A stretch of 32,991 nucleotides of DNA, from the IMG/VR virus record IMGVR_UViG_2737471869_000025, one strand, 5' to 3'. The DNA comes from a virus. Its lineage: Duplodnaviria; Heunggongvirae; Uroviricota; Caudoviricetes. The position numbers and the translations under genes were made by a program. This document shows, one piece after another, positions 1 to 32,991 of the stretch. The notes beneath the pieces were generated by a model. The model did not search any database. It was not told where the DNA came from and was given only the letters and a program-made list of their open reading frames with translations. Within the stretch, counting starts at the first letter, position 1. Each line of letters opens with the position of its first letter.

Positions 1-333
1 ATGGGGGAAGGTGAGGTGAATAAAATAGCTGCTATATCATTAATTAGTGTTTTTCTTATGTCTGGTTGTGCTGTGCATAATGATGAGACAAGTATCTGTA
101 AATTTGGCCTTGCATATAAAAGTAATATTCAGCGTAAACTCGATAACCAATACTACACCGAAGCCGAAGCTTCTTTAGCCAGGGGCAGAATATCTGGTGC
201 AGAAAATATAGTAAAAAATGATGCAGCCCATTTCTGTGTTACTCAGGGCAAAAAAATGCAGATAGTTGACCTGAAGACAGAAGGTGCAGGATTACATGGC
301 GTCGCTCGTCTGACATTCAAATGTGGAGAGTGA
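1..333 (+). CDS. Hypothetical host lipoprotein (left flank, outside the prophage)
   Basis: ORF beginning with ATG at window position 1; hydrophobic stretch followed by lipobox-like LMSGC; lies outside attL. Identity not recognised. Confidence 0.45.
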   Translation: MGEGEVNKIAAISLISVFLMSGCAVHNDETSICKFGLAYKSNIQRKLDNQYYTEAEASLARGRISGAENIVKNDAAHFCVTQGKKMQIVDLKTEGAGLHGVARLTFKCGE

Positions 334-518: not shown

Positions 519-597
519 TAGGGTGTCACCAGTAGGGGCTTTCAACGGTACAATGCGGGTTTGAGCGGCATAAATTACCACTGAAAGCCCTTAAACG

Positions 598-1611
598 TTA
601 CTCTACTGTGGACACTGTGTGGACACTCTCGACCTCAGTACCACCTCTTAGCGGATTAAGAGAAATGGCGTCCTGAAGGTACTCTGGCGCAAAATGAGCG
701 TAAACCATAGTTTGCTCAATCCGCGTGTGACCTAGTATCCGTTGTAGCGTGATAATACTTCCTCCATTAATCATGAAATGAGTGGCAAAGCTGTGCCTTA
801 GTGCATGTGTAGCTTGCCCCATTGGCAAATCCGGTTTTATTGCTTTCATTGTTCGTCTGAAGCGAGGGTAATCAGCATCAGGGAATAAAAAACCTCGTTT
901 GTTATCCGCGATCATTTTGGCAACAGCCTCTGAGATCGGGACGGTGCGTGGTTTGTTTGTTTTCGTTTTAACAAACGTGACGCGGTTATGGATGATATTT
1001 TCTGCTTTCAAACGAGCTGCTTCTCCCCAACGTGCTCCAGTACTCAGGCAAAGAATCGCAATCTTTTTGTTGTCGCCGTCAAGAGCAGCAAGCAGTAAGG
1101 CAATTTCTTCCTGTGTGAGATAGCCTGTGTCTGGTTTTTCCTCCTTAAGCCTTTTTGTCCCTCTGATAGGGTGCTCACCAAAGAATAACTCCGCTTCAAT
1201 CAGGGCTGTAAACATGCCGCTAATACATGTTAAATCACGATTGATACTCGAAGGTTTAATACCCTGACTTCTTCGGGTGGCGCAGTACTGGCTGATAAGC
1301 GATTTCGTAATTTGAAATGCGCATGGGTCATTCGTTATTTTTGTGAAGATTTCAATTTTTCCAAGATTAGATTTCCCATGCTCTTCGTGTTTACCCTTTA
1401 AATCCCACCAGATCTGTGTCAGCTCTGACAGACGTCGCTTGTCTGTTGGTTTTGATAGCCATTCTTTATTGTGGTGGTTGTACAACGTGTATTTCTCGAA
1501 AGCGACAGCTTCGCTTTTCTTATCAAACTTCCTACGGATGCGTTTTCCATTACGTCCAGTAGGGCGGATGTCCACTTCATATCGACCATCATCGAGTTTT
1601 TTGATTGCCAT
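598..1611 (-). CDS. int: Tyrosine integrase (P2 Int-like)
   Basis: 337 aa, near-identical to P2 integrase as recalled; conserved C-terminal HALRHSFATHF...LGH...Y motifs; adjacent to attL. Confidence 0.95.
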   Translation of the reverse strand: MAIKKLDDGRYEVDIRPTGRNGKRIRRKFDKKSEAVAFEKYTLYNHHNKEWLSKPTDKRRLSELTQIWWDLKGKHEEHGKSNLGKIEIFTKITNDPCAFQITKSLISQYCATRRSQGIKPSSINRDLTCISGMFTALIEAELFFGEHPIRGTKRLKEEKPDTGYLTQEEIALLLAALDGDNKKIAILCLSTGARWGEAARLKAENIIHNRVTFVKTKTNKPRTVPISEAVAKMIADNKRGFLFPDADYPRFRRTMKAIKPDLPMGQATHALRHSFATHFMINGGSIITLQRILGHTRIEQTMVYAHFAPEYLQDAISLNPLRGGTEVESVHTVSTVE

Positions 1612-1726: not shown

Positions 1727-2026
1727 TTAACCAGTCTTTTGACCGGAGTGGGGCGATGTTGTTTCGTTTTGCCCAAAGTGTGCGAGAGCGGGCGCAATTT
1801 GCCCGGACTCAGGAGCGATCTGATTGGTCATGAACCATAAAGTGTATTTGGTGAATTGTGGGGTCTGCAGGATGTTCATCATGACATCTGTTGGAGGTGT
1901 TGAACGACCACTTTCATAGTAACTCAGCGTGCCATACGGAACCCCTGTTAAATCAGCAAGTTGTTGTCTGCTCAAATACTCTGATTTTCGCATTAAGACT
2001 ATCTTCTCGCTTATCGTGTTTGACAT
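1727..2026 (-). CDS. C: Immunity repressor C
   Basis: 99 aa, HTH region (LSRQQLADLTGVPYGTLSYYE); position and divergent orientation relative to cox as in P2. Confidence 0.9.
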   Translation of the reverse strand: MSNTISEKIVLMRKSEYLSRQQLADLTGVPYGTLSYYESGRSTPPTDVMMNILQTPQFTKYTLWFMTNQIAPESGQIAPALAHFGQNETTSPHSGQKTG

Positions 2027-2140: not shown

Positions 2141-2416
2141 ATGAGCAAGCAAGTAACACTCATGACTGATGCGATTCCTTATCAGGAGTTCGCAAAACTA
2201 ATAGGAAAATCGACAGGAGCGGTTCGTCGGATGATCGATAAAGGAAAGCTGCCTGTAATTGATATGACCGATCCACAATCAGCTTCAGGTCGTGCAGGTG
2301 AATATTGGGTATACCTTCCGGCATGGAATAACGGACTAAAACTGGCTTATGAAAGCCGCCCTAAAGAGATTCGTGACGGCTGGTTGATGTGGTTAGGTCT
2401 CGGTGAACCACGTTAA
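2141..2416 (+). CDS. cox: Cox (excisionase / transcriptional regulator)
   Basis: 91 aa, first gene of the rightward early operon after Pe; matches P2 Cox as recalled. Confidence 0.9.
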   Translation: MSKQVTLMTDAIPYQEFAKLIGKSTGAVRRMIDKGKLPVIDMTDPQSASGRAGEYWVYLPAWNNGLKLAYESRPKEIRDGWLMWLGLGEPR

Positions 2417-7138: not shown

Positions 7139-7702
7139 GTGTCTATCGAACAGTCAGGAAATACCGTAACAAATGGCAACATAATTTCTGGTGATCAGAC
7201 TAATCATATATTCAATTATCCTGTTAAAGGAACTAACAGGGAGATACAGAAACTTTATGAGTGTTTGAAGAGAGGTGATATAGGGGAAGCGGTTCCGGGG
7301 TTTTGTGCTGAACTAGAGCATTATATGTCCCTTCAGCCTGATATTGATGTTCGGGGGTTAGACGCTAAATTACTCGAGAGTAATAGAAAAGATTTGTTGT
7401 TTTTAGCTAAGCAGATGAAGGAAAAAGCGACAAAAGCTATAATGCGTCGCCAGACGTCAAAAACTGCACAAAGAATATTTGTAATAATTTTAGATCAAAT
7501 TCATTTTGATTTTATAACGAAAGTAACACCACTTATAGAAGCGGATAGCTCCAGAGTGATTGTTGATGAGAAAATCGCTTCAATAATTGATGAATTATAT
7601 TCGTCTTTGGGAGAAAACTTGCTAGAGCTAACAGCAAAAGATCTCTTGGGATTACTATTTTTTCTGGGTGGCAATTGCCATATAAGGTGGGATAAATGCT
7701 AA
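7139..7702 (+). CDS. Hypothetical protein of the cargo cassette (187 aa)
   Basis: GTG start 7 nt after an AAGAGG Shine-Dalgarno; N-terminus GNTVTNGNIISGDQ repeats the C-terminal motif of the upstream ORF; no recognisable catalytic motif. Confidence 0.6.
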   Translation: MSIEQSGNTVTNGNIISGDQTNHIFNYPVKGTNREIQKLYECLKRGDIGEAVPGFCAELEHYMSLQPDIDVRGLDAKLLESNRKDLLFLAKQMKEKATKAIMRRQTSKTAQRIFVIILDQIHFDFITKVTPLIEADSSRVIVDEKIASIIDELYSSLGENLLELTAKDLLGLLFFLGGNCHIRWDKC

Positions 7703-8196
7703 TTTACCATCCAGCATATGATGCATATCATTGTTTATTCAGAATGATTGCTCTTATAGACCATGTAAATGAAATTGAGGTAGATAAGGCCAGGATTTTG
7801 GACTTCTATCTGCTATTTCCTGCTTTGGTATCTGAAATTAGAATGCCTCATAATTATTCTTCAATGAAGAAAGAAGCGAAGAAGTATTCTAATATATATC
7901 GGGATCCTATTAATGTTACATCTACATTCAGAGATATGTATGAAATTCAAATGGCAGCAATAAGATGTCTTGCAGCTACTGGGTTGGTTGAGATGGATTG
8001 TCTTGAGAAAAACATTATAAAGAGAACAGATAAGTCTGTTCCAGATGGCTTATTACTTTCTATTAATAATTTTATTAATACGAATAAAACTATTAATACA
8101 TTTATCATAGACACACTATCTAAATTCCATTTGGTTGGAAAAGATGGTTTAAAAGATAGAACGAAGTTAATGGAGTTTAGATATGACTATTCTTAA
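7696..8196 (+). CDS. Hypothetical protein of the cargo cassette (166 aa, possible middle component)
   Basis: Start overlaps the upstream stop and its own stop overlaps the ATPase start (operon-like coupling); no recognisable motif. Confidence 0.6.
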   Translation: MLIYHPAYDAYHCLFRMIALIDHVNEIEVDKARILDFYLLFPALVSEIRMPHNYSSMKKEAKKYSNIYRDPINVTSTFRDMYEIQMAAIRCLAATGLVEMDCLEKNIIKRTDKSVPDGLLLSINNFINTNKTINTFIIDTLSKFHLVGKDGLKDRTKLMEFRYDYS

Positions 8197-10120
8197 TCCA
8201 TCTTTTTTTGTTAGTAAATTAAAAGTTTTCCAAGCTGGGCATGAAGCCTTTAGCTGTGTTTTCCATAAAGGGGTAAATGTAATAAGGGGGCGAAATAGCT
8301 CTGGCAAAACTACTGTTATGGATCTTTTAGCATTTTCACTTGGTGCTGAAAATATTAGCTTGAAACCAACAGCTCTTTTATGTTCATTTACCATGGTTGA
8401 AGTGCTTTTGAATAATAATCTTGCCTGTTTTAAGCGGGAGATAAGTTCAGAATCCATGCGACCGTTGAGTATTTTTTGGGGCTCGATGGATAAAGCTCTT
8501 AACTCATCACCGAGTCAGTGGCAAACTTATCCTTTTAAGCGTTCAGAAAAATCACTGAGTTTTTCTCAGGTAATTTTAAATGCTTTAGATATGCCTCTAG
8601 CTCAAGGAGAGGGTGCTTCAATTTTAACAATGCATCAAATCCTACGTGTATTATATGCAGATCAGCCATCTCTTCATAGTCCTATATTTAGGAACGATAA
8701 TTTTGATAGAGCTCTAACACGAGAGACTATTGGTGATTATTTATGTGGTATATTTGATGACAAACTTTATAGCTCTTTGATTAGGCTTAAACAAGTTGAT
8801 GCTGAACTTTCGACAAAAATTGTTGAGCTGAAAAGCATATTTAAAGTTCTTGGACGCTCTGGGCAATCGCAGCATGTAAGTTTTATTGACGATAAAATAA
8901 AAGAGCTAAGAGAGAAGAAAGAAAAGATCAATGGCGAGCTTATCTCTCTCAAAGAGAGTAATAACTCTTCTGTTAATGATAAAAATGCTGATAAAACTAA
9001 AACTAACAACCTTCGAAAAAAATTAAATAAAGCGAAAGAAGAAGAAGTAAAAAATATTGACAGTATCCATATGTTAGAAATGGAGATAGCTGACTCTGAA
9101 ATGTTCATTAATGAGTTAGAATCCAGATTGCGCTCTCTTAATGAATCAAGTATTGCCAGAGACTATTTTAGCAACGTTAAATTTCAATTTTGTCCCAGTT
9201 GTTTAAGTGAGTTGAATATTTCCTCTGAAAATGAGTGCTCATTATGTAAAAATCACGCGCCAGAGGGTAGTGATGCTCCTCAATTATTAAGGATGAAAAA
9301 TGAGATTTCTATCCAATTAAAAGAATCCAGAGATCTTCTTGAGCATAATTATGTAAAACTGAGAGAGCTTAAGAGCCAATCTCCTGCTTTAAAGCAAAAA
9401 GTGCGAGATTTAATTCGTGAATATGAAGAAGTCTCTAAGGTTTGGGAAAATGCCTATGAAATAGAGTTTGAAACTCTTACTAAGGCTCTGGGACGTGTTG
9501 AAGAAGAAATTAAACAGGCTTGTGAATTACAAAAACTTAGTGATGTAATATCTGATTTGCAAAAAGAACGTGATAGTCTGCAGTTAGAGAAGGAGAGATT
9601 GTCCTCTTTAATTGAATCTTTGGAGAGTAAAGAGGAATATAGGAAGAAGGATATTTCTAAAACTATAGAAAAAATTATGAAAAGACTTCTTAAAAAAGAT
9701 CTTCCATTGCAGACTGAATTTATTGATCCCAGAAAAGTTAATTTTAGCTTTGCCGATAATACTGTTTATGTAAATGGGGCTAAGTATTTTTCAGAAAGTT
9801 CAGCAGTTGTATTAAGACATCTCTTTCATTTAGCATTGTTAACTGCAAGCATTGAAAAAAAATACATGAGATTACCTCGTTTCCTAATGCTTGATGGAAT
9901 TGACGATGGTGGAATGGAGAAAGAGCGCAGTCACAATCTGCAGAAAATAATAGTACAAGAAACTCAATCGTATCAATATGATTTTCAAATAATTTATGCG
10001 ACATCGGAGATTAATCCAGAATATGAAAATACCGATTTGATTGTTGGTCGGTATTTTAATCCAGATGATAAATCATTAAAGATAAATTATACCGCTCTTG
10101 ATAAAGATTTATTGAACTAA
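8183..10120 (+). CDS. SMC/Rad50-like ABC ATPase with coiled coil and putative zinc hook (candidate defence ATPase)
   Basis: 645 aa; Walker A GRNSSGKTT (aa 36-44); Walker B/D-loop-like RFLMLDGIDDGG (aa 566-577); about 300 aa of charged heptad-like sequence between the lobes; CPSC-x11-CSLC at aa 337-355, the midpoint. Confidence 0.8.
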   Translation: MTILNPSFFVSKLKVFQAGHEAFSCVFHKGVNVIRGRNSSGKTTVMDLLAFSLGAENISLKPTALLCSFTMVEVLLNNNLACFKREISSESMRPLSIFWGSMDKALNSSPSQWQTYPFKRSEKSLSFSQVILNALDMPLAQGEGASILTMHQILRVLYADQPSLHSPIFRNDNFDRALTRETIGDYLCGIFDDKLYSSLIRLKQVDAELSTKIVELKSIFKVLGRSGQSQHVSFIDDKIKELREKKEKINGELISLKESNNSSVNDKNADKTKTNNLRKKLNKAKEEEVKNIDSIHMLEMEIADSEMFINELESRLRSLNESSIARDYFSNVKFQFCPSCLSELNISSENECSLCKNHAPEGSDAPQLLRMKNEISIQLKESRDLLEHNYVKLRELKSQSPALKQKVRDLIREYEEVSKVWENAYEIEFETLTKALGRVEEEIKQACELQKLSDVISDLQKERDSLQLEKERLSSLIESLESKEEYRKKDISKTIEKIMKRLLKKDLPLQTEFIDPRKVNFSFADNTVYVNGAKYFSESSAVVLRHLFHLALLTASIEKKYMRLPRFLMLDGIDDGGMEKERSHNLQKIIVQETQSYQYDFQIIYATSEINPEYENTDLIVGRYFNPDDKSLKINYTALDKDLLN

Positions 10121-10154: not shown

Positions 10155-10263
10155 CATTTATATCAGCTTGTTTTTGAATCGGGGCAAGTCCAGAGGTGGT
10201 AAGCTGTTTGGAGAAAACTGCAACTGCATTAAAACCGCCCCACGAAGCGGGCGGGCGAGGCGG

Positions 10264-10282
10264 GGAAAGCACTGCGCGCTGG
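10264..10282. other. cos: cos cohesive-end site (19 nt)
   Basis: ggcgaggcggggaaagcac matches the P2 19-nt cohesive end as recalled; located between the cargo and Q as in P2; flanked by GC-rich dyads. Confidence 0.65.
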
Positions 10283-21581: not shown

Positions 21582-22185
21582 TTCGCGACTGCTGCCGACC
21601 GGCTCATCACCGCTTGAAGTTGCCGCCGCAAAAGCCTGTGCGGAAATTGAAAAAACACCGGTCAGTATTCGTGAGCTGTGGAACCCGGACACCTGCCCGG
21701 CAAATCTGCTGCCGTGGCTGGCGTGGTCATTTTCGGTTGACCGCTGGGATGATAAGTGGCCGGAAGCGACAAAACGCGCTGTTATCCGCGATGCGTATTT
21801 CATTCACTGCCATAAGGGCACTATAGGCGCAATCCGGCGTGTGGTGGAGCCGCTCGGCTATCTGATTGAGGTGAGGGAGTGGTGGCAGCTCAACGAGGAG
21901 CCGGGGACATTCCGCATCGTTGTTGGCGTGCTTGAGCAAGGTATTACCGAGGAAATGTATCAGGAGCTGGAGCGCCTCGTTGCTGATGCAAAACCGGCAA
22001 GCCGCCATCTGACGGGACTGGCTATCAGTTTAAGTACAACCGGCAACATTTTTGCCGGTGCGGGATGCTATCACGGTGACGCCCTGACGGTTTATCCCTA
22101 CACCCCGGAGGCCATTATTGTCGGAGGGGATTATTTCCCGGCCTCGGCCATTCATTTAATTGATAACCTGAGAGTAAACGCATGA
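21574..22185 (+). CDS. I: Baseplate/tail protein I
   Basis: 203 aa; N-terminal two thirds match P2 gpI as recalled, C-terminal part differs and is longer. Confidence 0.88.
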   Translation: MSDSRLLPTGSSPLEVAAAKACAEIEKTPVSIRELWNPDTCPANLLPWLAWSFSVDRWDDKWPEATKRAVIRDAYFIHCHKGTIGAIRRVVEPLGYLIEVREWWQLNEEPGTFRIVVGVLEQGITEEMYQELERLVADAKPASRHLTGLAISLSTTGNIFAGAGCYHGDALTVYPYTPEAIIVGGDYFPASAIHLIDNLRVNA

Positions 22186-23588
22186 CAGTGAAATACTACG
22201 CCATTCTGACTAATCAGGGCGCAGCACGGCTGGCTAACGCGACGATGCTCGGCAGTAAGCTGAATCTGACGCAAATGGCCGTTGGTGATGCGAATGGTGT
22301 CTTGCCGACACCAGACCCGGCACAGACAAAACTGATTAACCAGAAACGCATCGCGCCGCTGAATCTTCTGAGTGTTGACCCGAACAACCAGAGCCAGATT
22401 ATTGCGGAGCAAATCATCCCTGAGAACGAGGGCGGATTCTGGATCCGTGAGATTGGGCTTTATGATGATGAAGGCGTACTCATTGCGGTGGCAAACTGCC
22501 CGGAAACGTACAAACCGCAGTTGCAGGAAGGAAGCGGTCGTACCCAGACTATCCGCATGATTCTGGTTGTCTCGAATACCGAAGCCATCACGCTGAAAAT
22601 CGACCCGTCGGTGGTACTGGCGACCCGTAAATACGTGGATGATGAAGTCCTGGAATTAAGGCTGTATGTGGATGACCAGATGAGAAACCACATTGCCGCA
22701 CAGGATCCTCATACCCAGTATGCACAGAAACATAATCCGACATTTACCGGAGAACCAAAAGCGCCGACGCCTGCCGCAGGAAATAACACCACGCGGATTG
22801 CGACTACTGCGTTTGTTCAGGCCGCTATTACCGCTCTGATTAACGGTGCGCCAGCCACGCTGGACACACTGAAAGAAATTGCCGCAGCCATTAACAATGA
22901 CCCGAAATTCAGCACCACCATTAACAATGCGCTGGCACTGAAAGCGCCGCTGTCGAGTCCCGCACTTACCGGAACGCCAACAGCACCTACTGCGGCACAG
23001 TCGGTCAACAATACACAGATTGCCACCACGGCTTTTGTGAAATCAGCAATTGCGGCAATGGTGGGTTCTGCCCCTGCGGCACTGGATACACTGAATGAAC
23101 TGGCGGCGGCGCTGGGGAATGACCCTAACTTTTCAACAACAGTGCTTAATGCACTGGCAGGCAAACAACCGCTGGACAATACGCTTACTAATTTGAGTGG
23201 AAAGGATGTTGCTGGTCTTCTCGCATACCTTGGTTTGGGAGAAGCGGCAAAAAGGGATGTTGGCACAGGTGCAAATCAGATCCCTGATATGAGTTCGTGG
23301 ACAAAGGGAATCTCAACGGATGCAATCTGGATCAGGTTTCCAGACGGGACAATTATCCAGATGGGGGCGATTGGAGCTTCAAACACAGATATTACCTTTC
23401 CCATACCGTTTCCATCACAGTGCATGATTTTTATAGCAATGCCACGTAGTTCAGCATCAACGGCTTTCATTGGCACTGTTCAGGAGGACTCATTACGTCG
23501 GTCCAGAACAGGGACACGAGTGCTGGGTTTTAGCGGCGTAACGCCAGTAACGACAGCTGCTTTCGGCTATTTAGCGATCGGAAGATAA
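22182..23588 (+). CDS. H: Tail fiber protein (H-like, mosaic)
   Basis: 468 aa; conserved tail-fiber N-terminal core (FWIREIGLYDDEGVLIAVAN) and two tandem ~54-aa repeats, with a divergent C-terminal receptor-binding part; shorter than the P2 H I recall. Confidence 0.85.
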   Translation: MTVKYYAILTNQGAARLANATMLGSKLNLTQMAVGDANGVLPTPDPAQTKLINQKRIAPLNLLSVDPNNQSQIIAEQIIPENEGGFWIREIGLYDDEGVLIAVANCPETYKPQLQEGSGRTQTIRMILVVSNTEAITLKIDPSVVLATRKYVDDEVLELRLYVDDQMRNHIAAQDPHTQYAQKHNPTFTGEPKAPTPAAGNNTTRIATTAFVQAAITALINGAPATLDTLKEIAAAINNDPKFSTTINNALALKAPLSSPALTGTPTAPTAAQSVNNTQIATTAFVKSAIAAMVGSAPAALDTLNELAAALGNDPNFSTTVLNALAGKQPLDNTLTNLSGKDVAGLLAYLGLGEAAKRDVGTGANQIPDMSSWTKGISTDAIWIRFPDGTIIQMGAIGASNTDITFPIPFPSQCMIFIAMPRSSASTAFIGTVQEDSLRRSRTGTRVLGFSGVTPVTTAAFGYLAIGR

Positions 23589-23591
23589 ATA

Positions 23592-24035
23592 ATGACTCAT
23601 TATTACTACAGTGCGTCTGAAAACGCGTTTTTTCCCGCAGTGCTGGAAGAACAGTACAAAAAGGCTGGCACATTCCCGGATGATGCCAGGGAGGTTGATG
23701 CTGATGTGGCCGTTACTTTTATAGGGAATCCGCCTGATGGCAAAATTCGTATTGCCGGGAGTGACGGGATGCCGAGGTGGGGAGATATTCCACCACCAAC
23801 CCATGCAGAAATTATTGCTGAGGCTGAACGAGAAAAACAACGCCGTATTGATGTCGCAAACGAATTCATGAATAACAAGCAGTGGCCCGGTAAAGCCGCT
23901 ATTGGTCGTCTGAAAGGTGACGAACTGGCGCAATATAATTTGTGGCTGGATTACCTGGACGCACTGGAACTGGTCGATACTTCCAGTGCGCCAGATAATG
24001 AATGGCCTACGCCTCCGGCAGTTCAGGCCAGATGA
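23592..24035 (+). CDS. G: Tail fiber assembly protein (Tfa)
   Basis: 147 aa with the conserved Tfa C-terminal region (LWLDYLDALELVDTSSAPDNEWPTPP); directly downstream of H. Confidence 0.88.
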   Translation: MTHYYYSASENAFFPAVLEEQYKKAGTFPDDAREVDADVAVTFIGNPPDGKIRIAGSDGMPRWGDIPPPTHAEIIAEAEREKQRRIDVANEFMNNKQWPGKAAIGRLKGDELAQYNLWLDYLDALELVDTSSAPDNEWPTPPAVQAR

Positions 24036-24420
24036 CATCCGGCGCGGTGCTGGTATCTGTTGCCGTCACCGCGTCAGTGTAATCCAGCACGGCGTTAAGT
24101 CGGGTTGTTTCTGCCTGCGTCAACTTCCGTCCGGCCTGTAATTTCAGCTGAATCAGACTAATGGAAGCCATTGCTGCATCAATCAGTGACTGGCGCTGTG
24201 CTTCTGCTGCATCTACTGCTGCGCCGTGCTGTGCCTCGGTATCTGTCACCCATTTCTCACCATTCCATTCATCGTATGGCGTTAACGGGGCGATAGTGGT
24301 TGTATTTTCAGGATAATCACCCGGAGCTGTGATTTCTTTCGATTCTCCTGTTTCGGTGCTATAGACGATTTCACCGCGATGATCTGGCACATATTCCCAT
24401 GAATTTAAATCTACAGAGCG
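24007..24420 (-). pseudogene. Inverted, 5'-truncated second tail fiber assembly gene (Tfa' remnant)
   Basis: Minus-strand ORF 24007..24531 has Tfa-like sequence only in its C-terminal ~135 aa (WEYVPDHRGEIVY...LDYTDAVTATDTSTAPDVIWPELP); the first ~37 codons are antisense of the invertase remnant. Confidence 0.6.
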
Positions 24421-24454
24421 ACAGATTGCATAACCAGCTTTATGTGTACCTGGT

Positions 24455-24703
24455 GCATCCGAGCGGACACGCGCCGGACTGGAAGCGGCCAGAGCCAAAG
24501 GCCGTATTGGTGGCAGACGTCCGAAACTCACCGCGAGTGAGTGGGAGCAGGTCGGACGGTTGCTGGCTGCGGGGGAATCTCGTCAACGTGTGGCGTTGAT
24601 TTTTGATATTGGCCTGTCCACGCTCTATAAAAAATTCCCCTCATCAGCGACAAAGAATAAATTGTGTCATCCCTTAGCCAACCGGGACAAATAGCCTGAC
24701 ATC
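24455..24703 (+). pseudogene. 3' fragment of a Gin/Pin/Hin-family serine DNA invertase (C-terminal HTH domain only)
   Basis: In-frame translation ERTRAGLEAARAKGRIGGRRPKLTASEWEQVGRLLAAGESRQRVALIFDIGLSTLYKKF resembles the invertase C-terminus; no catalytic N-terminal domain and no start codon; not in the ORF track. Confidence 0.65.
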
Positions 24704-24753
24704 TCCGGCACAACTGAAAATACCACTCACCCATTAACCACGGAGTTAAACGG

Positions 24754-31137: not shown

Positions 31138-31356
31138 ATGTTTCATTGTCCTTTATGCCAGCATGCCGCACATGCGCGTACAAGCCGCTATATCACTGAC
31201 ACGACAAAAGAGCGTTATCACCAGTGTCAGAACGTGAATTGCAGTGCCACGTTCATCACTTATGAGTCGGTACAGCGATACATCGTGAAGCCGGGAGAAG
31301 TCCACGCCGTCAGGCCGCACCCGTTGCTGTCAGGGCAGCAAATTATGTGGATGTAA
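31138..31356 (+). CDS. ogr: Late gene transcriptional activator Ogr (zinc finger)
   Basis: 72 aa from ATG 31138 (MFHCPLCQHAAHARTSRYITDTTKERYHQCQNVNCSATF); the ORF-track start at 31075 is an upstream extension. Confidence 0.92.
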   Translation: MFHCPLCQHAAHARTSRYITDTTKERYHQCQNVNCSATFITYESVQRYIVKPGEVHAVRPHPLLSGQQIMWM

Positions 31357-31367
31357 TTACAAACAGA

Positions 31368-31394
31368 AAGCCCCTCAGTCGAGGGGCTTTTTTT
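31368..31394 (+). terminator. Rho-independent terminator downstream of ogr
   Basis: GC-rich stem aagcccctc / gaggggctt with 4-nt loop, followed by a T-run. Confidence 0.8.
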
Positions 31395-31457
31395 GTCGAT
31401 GTGGTCAATGTGTGGACGTGGCCAGAAATAAATCCTTTTATTTCAATTTGTTGTACG

Positions 31458-31485
31458 TAAAAAATAAGCCCGTGTAAGGGAGATT
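31458..31485. repeat. attR: attR core, 28-bp direct repeat; also the 3' terminator end of cyaR
   Basis: Identical to 491..518; continues directly into the cyaR body. Confidence 0.85.
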
Positions 31486-31545
31486 ACACAGGCTAAGGAG
31501 GTGGTTCCTGGTACAGCTAGCATTTTATGGGTTATGTTTTTCAGC
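31459..31545 (-). ncRNA. cyaR: CyaR (RyeE) Hfq-binding small RNA
   Basis: Reverse complement gctgaaaaacataacccataaaatgctagctgtaccaggaaccacctccttagcctgtgtaatctcccttacacgggcttatttttt matches CyaR as recalled, including terminator hairpin and U-tail; lies between yegQ and the prophage as in E. coli. Confidence 0.85.
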
Positions 31546-31600
31546 GAAACGGATGATAACCTTAATAAATGCAGCTGTATGTGATCGGTTTCTAAGAATT
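31546..31600 (-). promoter_or_regulatory. cyaR promoter with class II CRP site
   Basis: On the minus strand, -10 TATCAT (31553..31558) and a CRP-like site TGTGA-N6-TCTAA (31580..31595) centred about 42 bp upstream of the sRNA 5' end. Confidence 0.6.
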
Positions 31601-31629
31601 TTCCATACGGGAAAAATAATCGAAATTAA

Positions 31630-32991
31630 TCACTTACCGTGTGGGTTACGCGTGGTTTCCCCGGAGAAATTACGCATCAGCAGAGCGTAATTGAGCTCAA
31701 GATCCTGCGGGACCGGGAGCCACACAGTATAACCATCGCCTGGTGCGACCGGCATCGCTTCACCTTTGGCGTTTTCCATGTGCTCAAGGGTAAAGTTAAT
31801 GTTGCCTTGCGGCGTCATCAGCTCAAGGCTGTCGCCAACGGAGAATTTATTTTTCACCGCTACCGCCGCGAGGTCCCCCTTGCGCTCACCGGTAAACTCA
31901 CCAACAAACTGCTGGCGGTCAGAAACTGAATAACCGTATTCGTAGTTCTGATAATCGTCGTGAGTATGACGACGCAGGAAACCTTCGGTATAGCCACGAT
32001 GCGCCAGACCTTCCAGAGTTTCCAGCAGGCTGGTATCGAACGGTTTGCCCGCAGCGGCGTCATCGATAGCTTTACGGTAAACCTGTGCGGTGCGTGCGCA
32101 ATAGTAGAAAGATTTAGTACGGCCTTCGATTTTCAGCGAATGCACGCCCATTTTGGTCAGGCGTTCTACATGGGCGATGGCGCGCAGATCTTTCGAGTTC
32201 ATGATGTAAGTGCCGTGCTCATCTTCAAACGCGGTCATATACTCGCCCGGACGCTGGGTTTCTTCGATCATAAACACTTTGTCGGTTGGCGCGCCGATAC
32301 CCAGCGTCGGCTCAACATTTTGCACCGGAATCGGCTCGTACTTGTGTACGATGTTGCCAACGTCATCTTCTTTCCCTTCCTGGACGTTGTACTCCCAGCG
32401 GCAGGCGTTGGTGCAGGTACCCTGGTTCGGATCGCGCTTGTTGATATAGCCAGAGAGCAGGCAGCGACCGGAGTAGGCCATGCACAGTGCGCCGTGAACG
32501 AAGATCTCGATCTCCATATCCGGCACCTGATTGCGGATCTCTTCAATCTCTTCCAGCGACAGCTCGCGAGAGAGGATCACGCGGGTCAGGCCCATTTGCT
32601 GCCAGAATTTCACCGTCGCCCAGTTTACGGCGTTAGCCTGCACCGAGAGGTGGATCGGCATTTCAGGGAAGTGCTCACGCACCAGCATAATCAGCCCTGG
32701 ATCGGACATAATCAGCGCATCCGGCCCCATTTCCACCACCGGTTTCAGGTCACGGATAAAGGTTTTCAGCTTGGCGTTGTGCGGTGCAATGTTGACCACG
32801 ACATAAAACTTTTTCCCCAGCGCGTGGGCTTCATTGATGCCGAGCTGAAGATTTTCGTGGTTGAATTCGTTGTTGCGCACACGCAGGGAGTAACGCGGCT
32901 GGCCCGCATAAACAGCATCTGCGCCATAAGCGAAAGCGTAACGCATATTTTTCAGCGTTCCCGCCGGGGAAAGGAGTTCCGGTTTAAACAT
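31630..32991 (-). CDS. yegQ: Peptidase U32-family protein YegQ (TrhP)
   Basis: 453 aa, full length; matches E. coli YegQ as recalled; start codon is the last three bases of the window. Confidence 0.9.
   Translation of the reverse strand: MFKPELLSPAGTLKNMRYAFAYGADAVYAGQPRYSLRVRNNEFNHENLQLGINEAHALGKKFYVVVNIAPHNAKLKTFIRDLKPVVEMGPDALIMSDPGLIMLVREHFPEMPIHLSVQANAVNWATVKFWQQMGLTRVILSRELSLEEIEEIRNQVPDMEIEIFVHGALCMAYSGRCLLSGYINKRDPNQGTCTNACRWEYNVQEGKEDDVGNIVHKYEPIPVQNVEPTLGIGAPTDKVFMIEETQRPGEYMTAFEDEHGTYIMNSKDLRAIAHVERLTKMGVHSLKIEGRTKSFYYCARTAQVYRKAIDDAAAGKPFDTSLLETLEGLAHRGYTEGFLRRHTHDDYQNYEYGYSVSDRQQFVGEFTGERKGDLAAVAVKNKFSVGDSLELMTPQGNINFTLEHMENAKGEAMPVAPGDGYTVWLPVPQDLELNYALLMRNFSGETTRNPHGK

Follow-up and report, generated by a model that had tools for sequence, protein, structure and literature searches.

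A P2-type prophage at the 3′ end of the small RNA gene cyaR in Escherichia coli

Gene content of the locus

The stretch of DNA analysed here (the window, 32,991 nucleotides) consists of phage DNA enclosed by host DNA on both sides. On the left lies host yegR (positions 1–333, plus strand), the 3′ part or the whole of the gene, with an open reading frame that starts at the window edge, as assigned from the RefSeq annotation of matching genomes and the list of open reading frames. It is followed by its downstream intergenic region. On the right, the small RNA (sRNA) gene cyaR is followed by trhP (yegQ), which encodes a U32-family tRNA hydroxylase (31630–32991, minus strand; Pfam Peptidase_U32, 5e-89, and RefSeq annotation).

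Judged by its sequence, the DNA between these flanks (491–31485) is a complete P2-type (Peduovirus) prophage. A megablast search with positions 491–25000 returned P2, Peduovirus P24C9, P22H1 and P22H4, and Escherichia phages 9W and 10W, with ~97% identity over the common parts. When all P2 proteins were used as tblastn queries, every essential gene except H was recovered at full length with 93–100% identity. The genes recovered at this level comprise the early set int, C, cox, orf78, B, orf80-83 and A; Q, P, O, N, M, L, X, Y, K, lysA, lysB, R and S; and V, W, J, I, FI, FII, E, T, U, D and ogr. Both the set and its order correspond to those of P2, namely int-C-cox-B-A, cos, Q-P, O-N-M-L, the lysis genes, the tail genes and D-ogr.

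The tyrosine integrase gene int (598–1611, minus strand) encodes a protein with Pfam Int_N and Phage_integrase domains that shares 335 of 337 residues with P2 Int (99.4% identity). The products of the adjacent immunity repressor gene C (1727–2026, minus strand) and of cox (2141–2416, plus strand), which encodes the excision directionality factor and repressor of Pc, are each 100% identical to their P2 counterparts. The P2 cohesive-end sequence cos, GGCGAGGCGGGGAAAGCAC, is found at 10254–10272 (plus strand). The last phage gene before the right attachment site is the late-gene activator ogr (31138–31356, plus strand; Pfam Ogr_Delta, 1.1e-21), 98.6% identical to P2 Ogr, followed by the terminator hairpin of ogr and the F operon (31367–31390), which was located both from the P2 record (feature 24265–24288) and by a terminator scan.

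Five genes that are non-essential in P2, orf30, fun(Z), orf91, tin and old, are absent or replaced. The slot held by old and tin in reference P2 is occupied by a three-gene ABC-3C/Lamassu-like defence cassette (7139–10120, plus strand), made up of a CTD9-domain protein (7139–7702), the middle component MC5 (7696–8196) and an LmuB-like ABC ATPase (8183–10120), all on the plus strand. The tail-fibre region (22182–24734) is also unlike that of P2: H is shorter and 43% identical, and in place of fun(Z) there are a second tail-fibre-assembly open reading frame (Caudo_TAP, 24007–24531) and a small open reading frame (24528–24734) in inverse orientation. These inverse frames resemble a fibre cassette that is spare or was formerly invertible; no invertase was noticed.

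The sRNA gene and the two attachment-site repeats

An Rfam scan of the whole window gave a single match above threshold, CyaR_RyeE (RF00112), at 31462–31547 on the minus strand. Its score of 100.7 bits (E = 3e-19) is well above the gathering score, 47, and the match covered model positions 1–85 of 85, untruncated. The cyaR (ryeE) gene, ~87 nt in length, was accordingly placed at 31459–31545 (minus strand), with its start at 31545, its terminator hairpin at 31494–31467 and its U-tail at 31466–31459. The interval proposed in the first-pass annotation of this DNA, 31458–31545, agrees with these limits, running from the K-12-type transcript start (GCUGAAAAAC..., 31545) to the end of the U-tail. 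By terminator scan and folding, the hairpin has an 11-bp stem and a 6-nt loop, UCUCCC, and is followed by UAUUUUUUA; the tail after this stem and loop was given by the terminator scan as TATTTTTT. The minimum-free-energy fold of CyaR (–19.8 kcal/mol, z = –3.0) reproduced both the small internal hairpin and the terminator hairpin.

The gene is transcribed toward the right end of the prophage, so that it and ogr converge. At 77 nt past the CyaR hairpin, the terminator hairpin of ogr has a terminator-like score on the cyaR (minus) strand too, and any read-through from CyaR would meet this hairpin or proceed antisense into ogr. Over cyaR, the RefSeq feature lists of the matching genomes give 'none': the sRNA is unannotated in these E. 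coli records, so that the prophage seems to sit 'between genes'. The overlap with cyaR is easily missed for this reason, as annotation pipelines omit the gene in these RefSeq records.

Compared with the K-12-type locus over 31458–31640, the window has a single difference, at position 31607; this base precedes the cyaR start by 62 nt and a CRP-type site by 12 nt. Compared with one empty-site genome across the cyaR region, it differs at this position and in the length of an A-run discussed below. The expectation that the CyaR-like sequence would align to reference cyaR was thus borne out, the window being identical to K-12 within the RNA. So was the proposal that the right attachment site (attR) supplies an intact CyaR 3′ end, since the RNA, its terminator and the first bases downstream are those of the K-12 allele.

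The CRP-type site, TGTGATCGGTTTCTAA (31580–31595), was identified by pattern match with 2 mismatches. Its centre precedes the cyaR start by ~42 nt; the whole site is host DNA and is identical in the empty-site and K-12 loci. A sigma-70 consensus scan gave no promoter match for cyaR; this is not counted against expression, because such a miss is expected for CRP-activated class II promoters with a poor –35 element. Control of CyaR by CRP is documented in literature cited in PMC3333887. The K-12 allele has been used experimentally as an Hfq-binding sRNA with an intrinsic terminator, for which a double-terminator assay gave 41% read-through, and sRNA function was found to need a long U-tail (PMC9765468). 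From its identity to this allele, CyaR is expected to be made and to be functional in this lysogen.

The 28-mer TAAAAAATAAGCCCGTGTAAGGGAGATT occurs in the window as two exact copies, at 491–518 and 31458–31485. No copy was found in 100 dinucleotide-preserving shuffles, with up to 3 mismatches tolerated. In the P2 record the canonical core is 27 nt long (attP 24356–24382), as against the 28-bp repeat of the window, and the 28th base (T at 491 and 31458) is a coincidental identity contributed by the host flank of this strain. A weaker similarity continues leftward beyond the core (440–479 compared with 31391–31430). Matches of the left host flank in empty-site genomes end at 518, and matches of the right host flank in other complete E. 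coli genomes start at 31458/31459; these limits coincide with the outer edges of the two core copies.

The left copy (attL, 491–518), which comprises the 27-nt P2 core and 1 nt, is without a cyaR body, as the first-pass annotation had stated: the CyaR model matches only at 31462–31547. At attL the terminator scan found no terminator-like site, and by folding, the phage DNA after the core cannot form the CyaR hairpin. The right copy (attR, 31458–31485) reads AATCTCCCTTACACGGGCTTATTTTTTA on the minus strand and holds the final 2 nt of the 5′ arm of the CyaR terminator, the loop, the entire 3′ arm and the U-tail, that is, the last 24–27 nt of CyaR. The remaining nine nt of the 5′ arm (31486–31494) are host DNA outside the core. 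The earlier description of the core as the terminator stem plus U-tail therefore holds for the loop, the 3′ arm and the U-tail and needs correction for the stem, which is not wholly contained in it. On the minus strand of the left host arm (480–506), an 8-bp hairpin, GGGCTTAT...ATAAGCCC, was also observed, as it was in one empty-site genome. Its first arm is common with the descending arm of the CyaR terminator, and it is a possible alternative or secondary structure just past the tail in empty-site strains and at attL.

The phage arms of the attachment site were located by transferring the sites annotated in the P2 record. The P′ side (535..632) contains the Cox binding region (~535–608, from P2 24399–24472 through a near-identical alignment) and the Int arm-type repeats TGTGGACACTGTGTGGACA (~606–632, from P2 24470–24496), which overlap the 3′ end of int. 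The P arm (31396–31460), mapped through a gap-free alignment, contains Int arm-type sites (31396–31423, P2 24293–24320) and the IHF site (31427–31460, P2 24324–24357). In the P2 record, the Int P arm and IHF site are on the ogr side of attP and the Cox sites and Int P′ arm on the int side; by alignment, the Int, IHF and Cox binding sites annotated there are all present in the window. When attP was rebuilt from the left side of attR, one core and the right side of attL, it aligned to P2 24290–24500 free of gaps and with few substitutions. This match, together with the P2-type prophage lying between the repeats, upholds their original assignment as attL and attR. The whole attP was found at at least 97% identity in ten phage records, while many other P2-type phages have the P arm alone in common and differ in core and integrase. 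P2 Int is a tyrosine recombinase with two DNA-binding parts, a core-binding domain for core-type sites and an N-terminal domain for arm-type repeats (consensus tgTGGaCa), and the P2 attB is identical to the attP core (PMC3448106).

Empty sites and the host arm

An artificial empty site of 189 nt was constructed by joining 425–518 to 31486–31580. Alignment to a prophage-free locus had been suggested as a check at the outset, and the rebuilt attB proved 100% identical over its 189 nt to two prophage-free genomes. To count the junctions among 5,426 complete E. coli genomes, symmetric junction queries were used, for which 80% coverage is reached by true junctions only. The empty-site junction was found in 4,208 genomes, the attL junction with a P2-type int side in 817, and the attR-type junction (ogr, P arm, core, cyaR) in 1,205, or ~1 in 5, K-12 among them; the collection is rich in laboratory strains and these proportions are not population frequencies. 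The excess of attR over attL (~390 genomes) reflects remnants of the K-12 kind.

The A-run at the core edge (492–497 and 31459–31464), which corresponds to the CyaR U-tail, is polymorphic. Six A are present in the window, P2 attP and the K-12 attR, and seven in the attL remnant of K-12 and in one empty-site genome. Prophage-free genomes include carriers of either allele, and about two thirds of the sampled empty sites have the 189-nt span of the 6-A allele. We considered whether the prophage takes one U from the CyaR tail, leaving 6 of 7, and rejected this, given that some prophage-free genomes are identical to the 6-A rebuilt site and that most sampled empty sites are 6-A. Because the 6-A allele is present in genomes free of the prophage, the length of the run is polymorphic in the host, and the phage is not its cause. 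The pattern in K-12, a truncated attL core with 7 A and an attR core with 6, fits an exchange of strands on the right-hand side of the A-run. In that case the phage would have supplied the U-tail of K-12 CyaR, if not more of it, as this one polymorphism suggests. The sequence past the U-run is ACGUAC... in the window versus AUGCAU... at the empty site, and a small quantitative effect on CyaR termination, from this changed sequence or from a run of 6 versus 7 U, is possible.

The host 'B' arm of the attachment site (440–490) is conserved in ~5370 of the 5,426 E. coli genomes. In E. coli, Shigella and other Escherichia lineages, it reads as a decayed copy of the P arm (compare 31391–31457), ~50 nt in length, on the yegR side of the core. 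The best preserved part is the block 445–459, TCGATGTGGTCAATG, which holds an intact Int arm-type site (motif TGTGGTCA), is the same as 31396–31410 and is collinear with the core; further matches extend up to CCAGA-ATA, with a 16-nt gap. In global alignments to the P2 P arm, the flanks of E. coli and Escherichia sp. MOD1-EC7003 scored above all of 2,000 shuffles (0/2000), and that of Shigella flexneri had a lower score, reached by 5 of 2,000; the Kluyvera and Enterobacter-labelled flanks gave background scores and showed no likeness in the same alignments. Escherichia sp. MOD1-EC7003 also keeps the IHF-site block, ATAAATCCTTCTGTTTCATTG; compared with this genome, E. coli has lost 16 nt. Just past yegR (379–417) there is a perfect 11-bp inverted repeat, AGCACGATGCC...GGCATCGTGCT. 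With the P-arm-like block as reference, its place is the one taken in the phage by the hairpin of the ogr terminator; no T-run accompanies it on either strand.

We hypothesize, tentatively and with slightly less than even confidence, that the 'empty' Escherichia attB at cyaR is itself a fossil attR, the scar of an old P2-type junction. The opposite course, a capture of the host arm by the phage, seems less probable, since of the two copies it is the host's that has degenerated. A further candidate explanation, that the likeness marks a second K-12-like remnant to the left of attL, was rejected, as the flank is ordinary yegR-cyaR intergenic sequence in ~5370 genomes. If the flank is indeed a fossil attR, the DNA downstream of the CyaR terminator would have been phage-derived since before the split of these Escherichia lineages. 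P2 would then favour a site that was once a junction and that has an arm-type Int site, which might add to the preference, and the two P-arm copies would offer short homology for the recombinational deletion of resident prophages. An old phage arm in a host site bears on the origin and persistence of preferred attachment sites. This observation is the only part of the analysis that may be new, and it is a modest one.

The core and the cyaR body are also found in Kluyvera, including K. intermedia with a P2-like attR. In other Kluyvera species and in two Enterobacter hormaechei-labelled records, different small inserts between yegS and the core abut the same core, for example a putative toxin-antitoxin pair, HicB-like or RelE/antitoxin-like. 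The two Enterobacter hormaechei-labelled records carry a cyaR identical to that of E. coli, and their labels look doubtful. The 3′ end of cyaR thus looks like a cross-genus insertion hotspot, within a contig scan that was made with an exact 26-mer and leaves out lineages with any substitution in it (for example E. albertii, E. fergusonii and Salmonella).

Integration at cyaR and comparison with known systems

The repeats flanking the prophage, the natural empty site, the overlap of the core with the 3′ end of an RNA and the unchanged RNA together make up the pattern of an integration that regenerates an RNA 3′ end. On this basis, the prophage almost certainly entered an attB in the cyaR terminator by P2-type Int/IHF recombination, with identical cores keeping the sRNA sequence unchanged. 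P2 integration requires Int and IHF, and excision additionally requires Cox. Phage attP and host attB would have recombined site-specifically with the help of Int and IHF, the 27-nt host core being the same as that of the phage and consisting of the 3′ part of cyaR: the loop, the descending arm and the U-tail of its intrinsic terminator. Because the two cores are identical, strand exchange within them provides each junction with a core copy. At attR, the host CyaR body and the 5′ arm of the hairpin adjoin one copy, which makes up the rest of hairpin and tail; the sequence of the sRNA is therefore unchanged, and only past the tail does phage DNA begin (the P arm, followed by the ogr terminator). 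At attL, the second copy adjoins the int side of the phage, with neither sRNA body nor promoter. CyaR would be expected to be transcribed still from its CRP-dependent promoter, which is wholly in host DNA, and excision by Int, IHF and Cox would restore attB.

An integration that is neutral in sequence might nonetheless alter CyaR output, if the phage DNA past the tail and a run of 6 rather than 7 U made termination or Hfq binding weaker and left lysogens with less functional CyaR or more read-through antisense to ogr. The run of 7 A/U in one empty-site genome, against 6 in the window, P2 attP and the K-12 attR, would be in keeping with such an effect, as would the need of sRNAs for a long U-tail and the 41% read-through at the K-12 CyaR terminator (PMC9765468), and a second hairpin on the same strand, the ogr terminator 77 nt downstream. 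However, the 6-A allele is also present in prophage-free genomes, two sampled ones being 100% identical to the rebuilt attB, and the K-12 attR-type allele is the one in which CyaR is studied as an Hfq-binding sRNA; we therefore consider altered output improbable.

Slightly less probable again is that the element is a defective, fixed prophage remnant that is no longer able to use the site. P2-derived remnants are common at this position, as seen from the ~390 more genomes with attR than with attL and from K-12, which has only D′-ogr. The present prophage lacks, or has other genes in place of, old, tin, orf91, fun(Z) and orf30, and its tail-fibre genes are unlike those of P2, with H only 43% identical. 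Yet the missing genes correspond to known non-essential cargo slots, the essential P2 genes are full length at 93–100% identity, the att junctions on either side are undamaged and the cos sequence is retained; from its sequence, the prophage would be viable. An origin of the repeats by chance or by faulty assembly, with a CyaR-like sequence other than cyaR, is hardly credible in view of the absence of any match in the shuffles, the Rfam score of 100.7 bits and the identical junctions in hundreds of independent complete genomes. No feature of the sequence speaks against integration by P2-type recombination into the cyaR terminator.

The arrangement is already known and ordinary. The E. coli W genome paper of 2011 assigns three elements to the insertion site 'cyaR RNA', namely Wphi2 (P2-type) from strain W, ogr-D′ from K-12 and P2*B from strain B, and lists the rybB ncRNA, the ssrA tmRNA and several tRNAs as further prophage insertion sites in E. 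coli (PMC3032704, Table 2). The characterization of the site in the first-pass annotation as a tRNA-like integration strategy is apt and already established by this tabulation of cyaR, rybB and ssrA. In a search of the literature on CyaR with P2, attachment or integration, this paper gave the only direct statement found, the classical P2-site and CyaR papers lying outside the search.

The closest system is phage P2 itself at its high-identity E. coli site, with the same 27-nt core, P and P′ arms, and IHF and Cox sites, the same int...ogr order relative to the host flanks and a 99% identical Int. Unlike P2, the present prophage has the ABC-3C/Lamassu-like cassette in place of old, tin and orf91, lacks fun(Z) and orf30 and carries different tail-fibre genes. 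In the classical naming (locI or locH), the high-identity site is probably 'locI', a name that reportedly goes back to Barreiro and Haggard-Ljungquist in 1992, who are said to have sequenced P2 attachment sites and described the K-12 D′-ogr-attR remnant. The CyaR papers of 2008–2009 are likewise said to have noted the neighbouring P2 remnant.

The K-12 cryptic P2 remnant (D′-ogrK) has the same attR junction, with ogr, P arm, core and cyaR in this order, and an identical CyaR. In K-12, only ~0.6 kb of phage DNA is kept and the attL core is truncated at ...AAGCCCGTGTA, whereas the window holds a whole prophage; the order in the K-12 derivative is yegR, truncated core, D′ fragment, ogrK, P arm, core and cyaR. 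The 'wild-type' 3′ flank of K-12 cyaR is thus itself a phage junction. The locus offers a textbook case of how an identical core spares the target gene of a temperate phage.

Prophages at the 3′ ends of tRNA and tmRNA genes, such as 186 (tRNA-Ile), HP1 (tRNA-Leu), and Fels-2 and SopE-phi (ssrA), likewise carry an attP that copies the 3′ end of a structured RNA, and the gene is regenerated on integration (PMC3448106). In contrast to these, the window has an Hfq-dependent sRNA as the target and a short core of 27 nt, and the duplicated part is half of a terminator hairpin with its U-tail rather than an acceptor or T-arm. Other small RNA genes also serve as attachment sites, each with a different integrase and core: the end of rybB is an attB for P2-type prophages in E. 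coli W, B and Crooks (PMC3032704), the sdsR/ryeB locus is a phage attachment site in Salmonella (PMC3333887), and the ffs 4.5S RNA gene is an attachment site in Enterococcus (PMC12540744).
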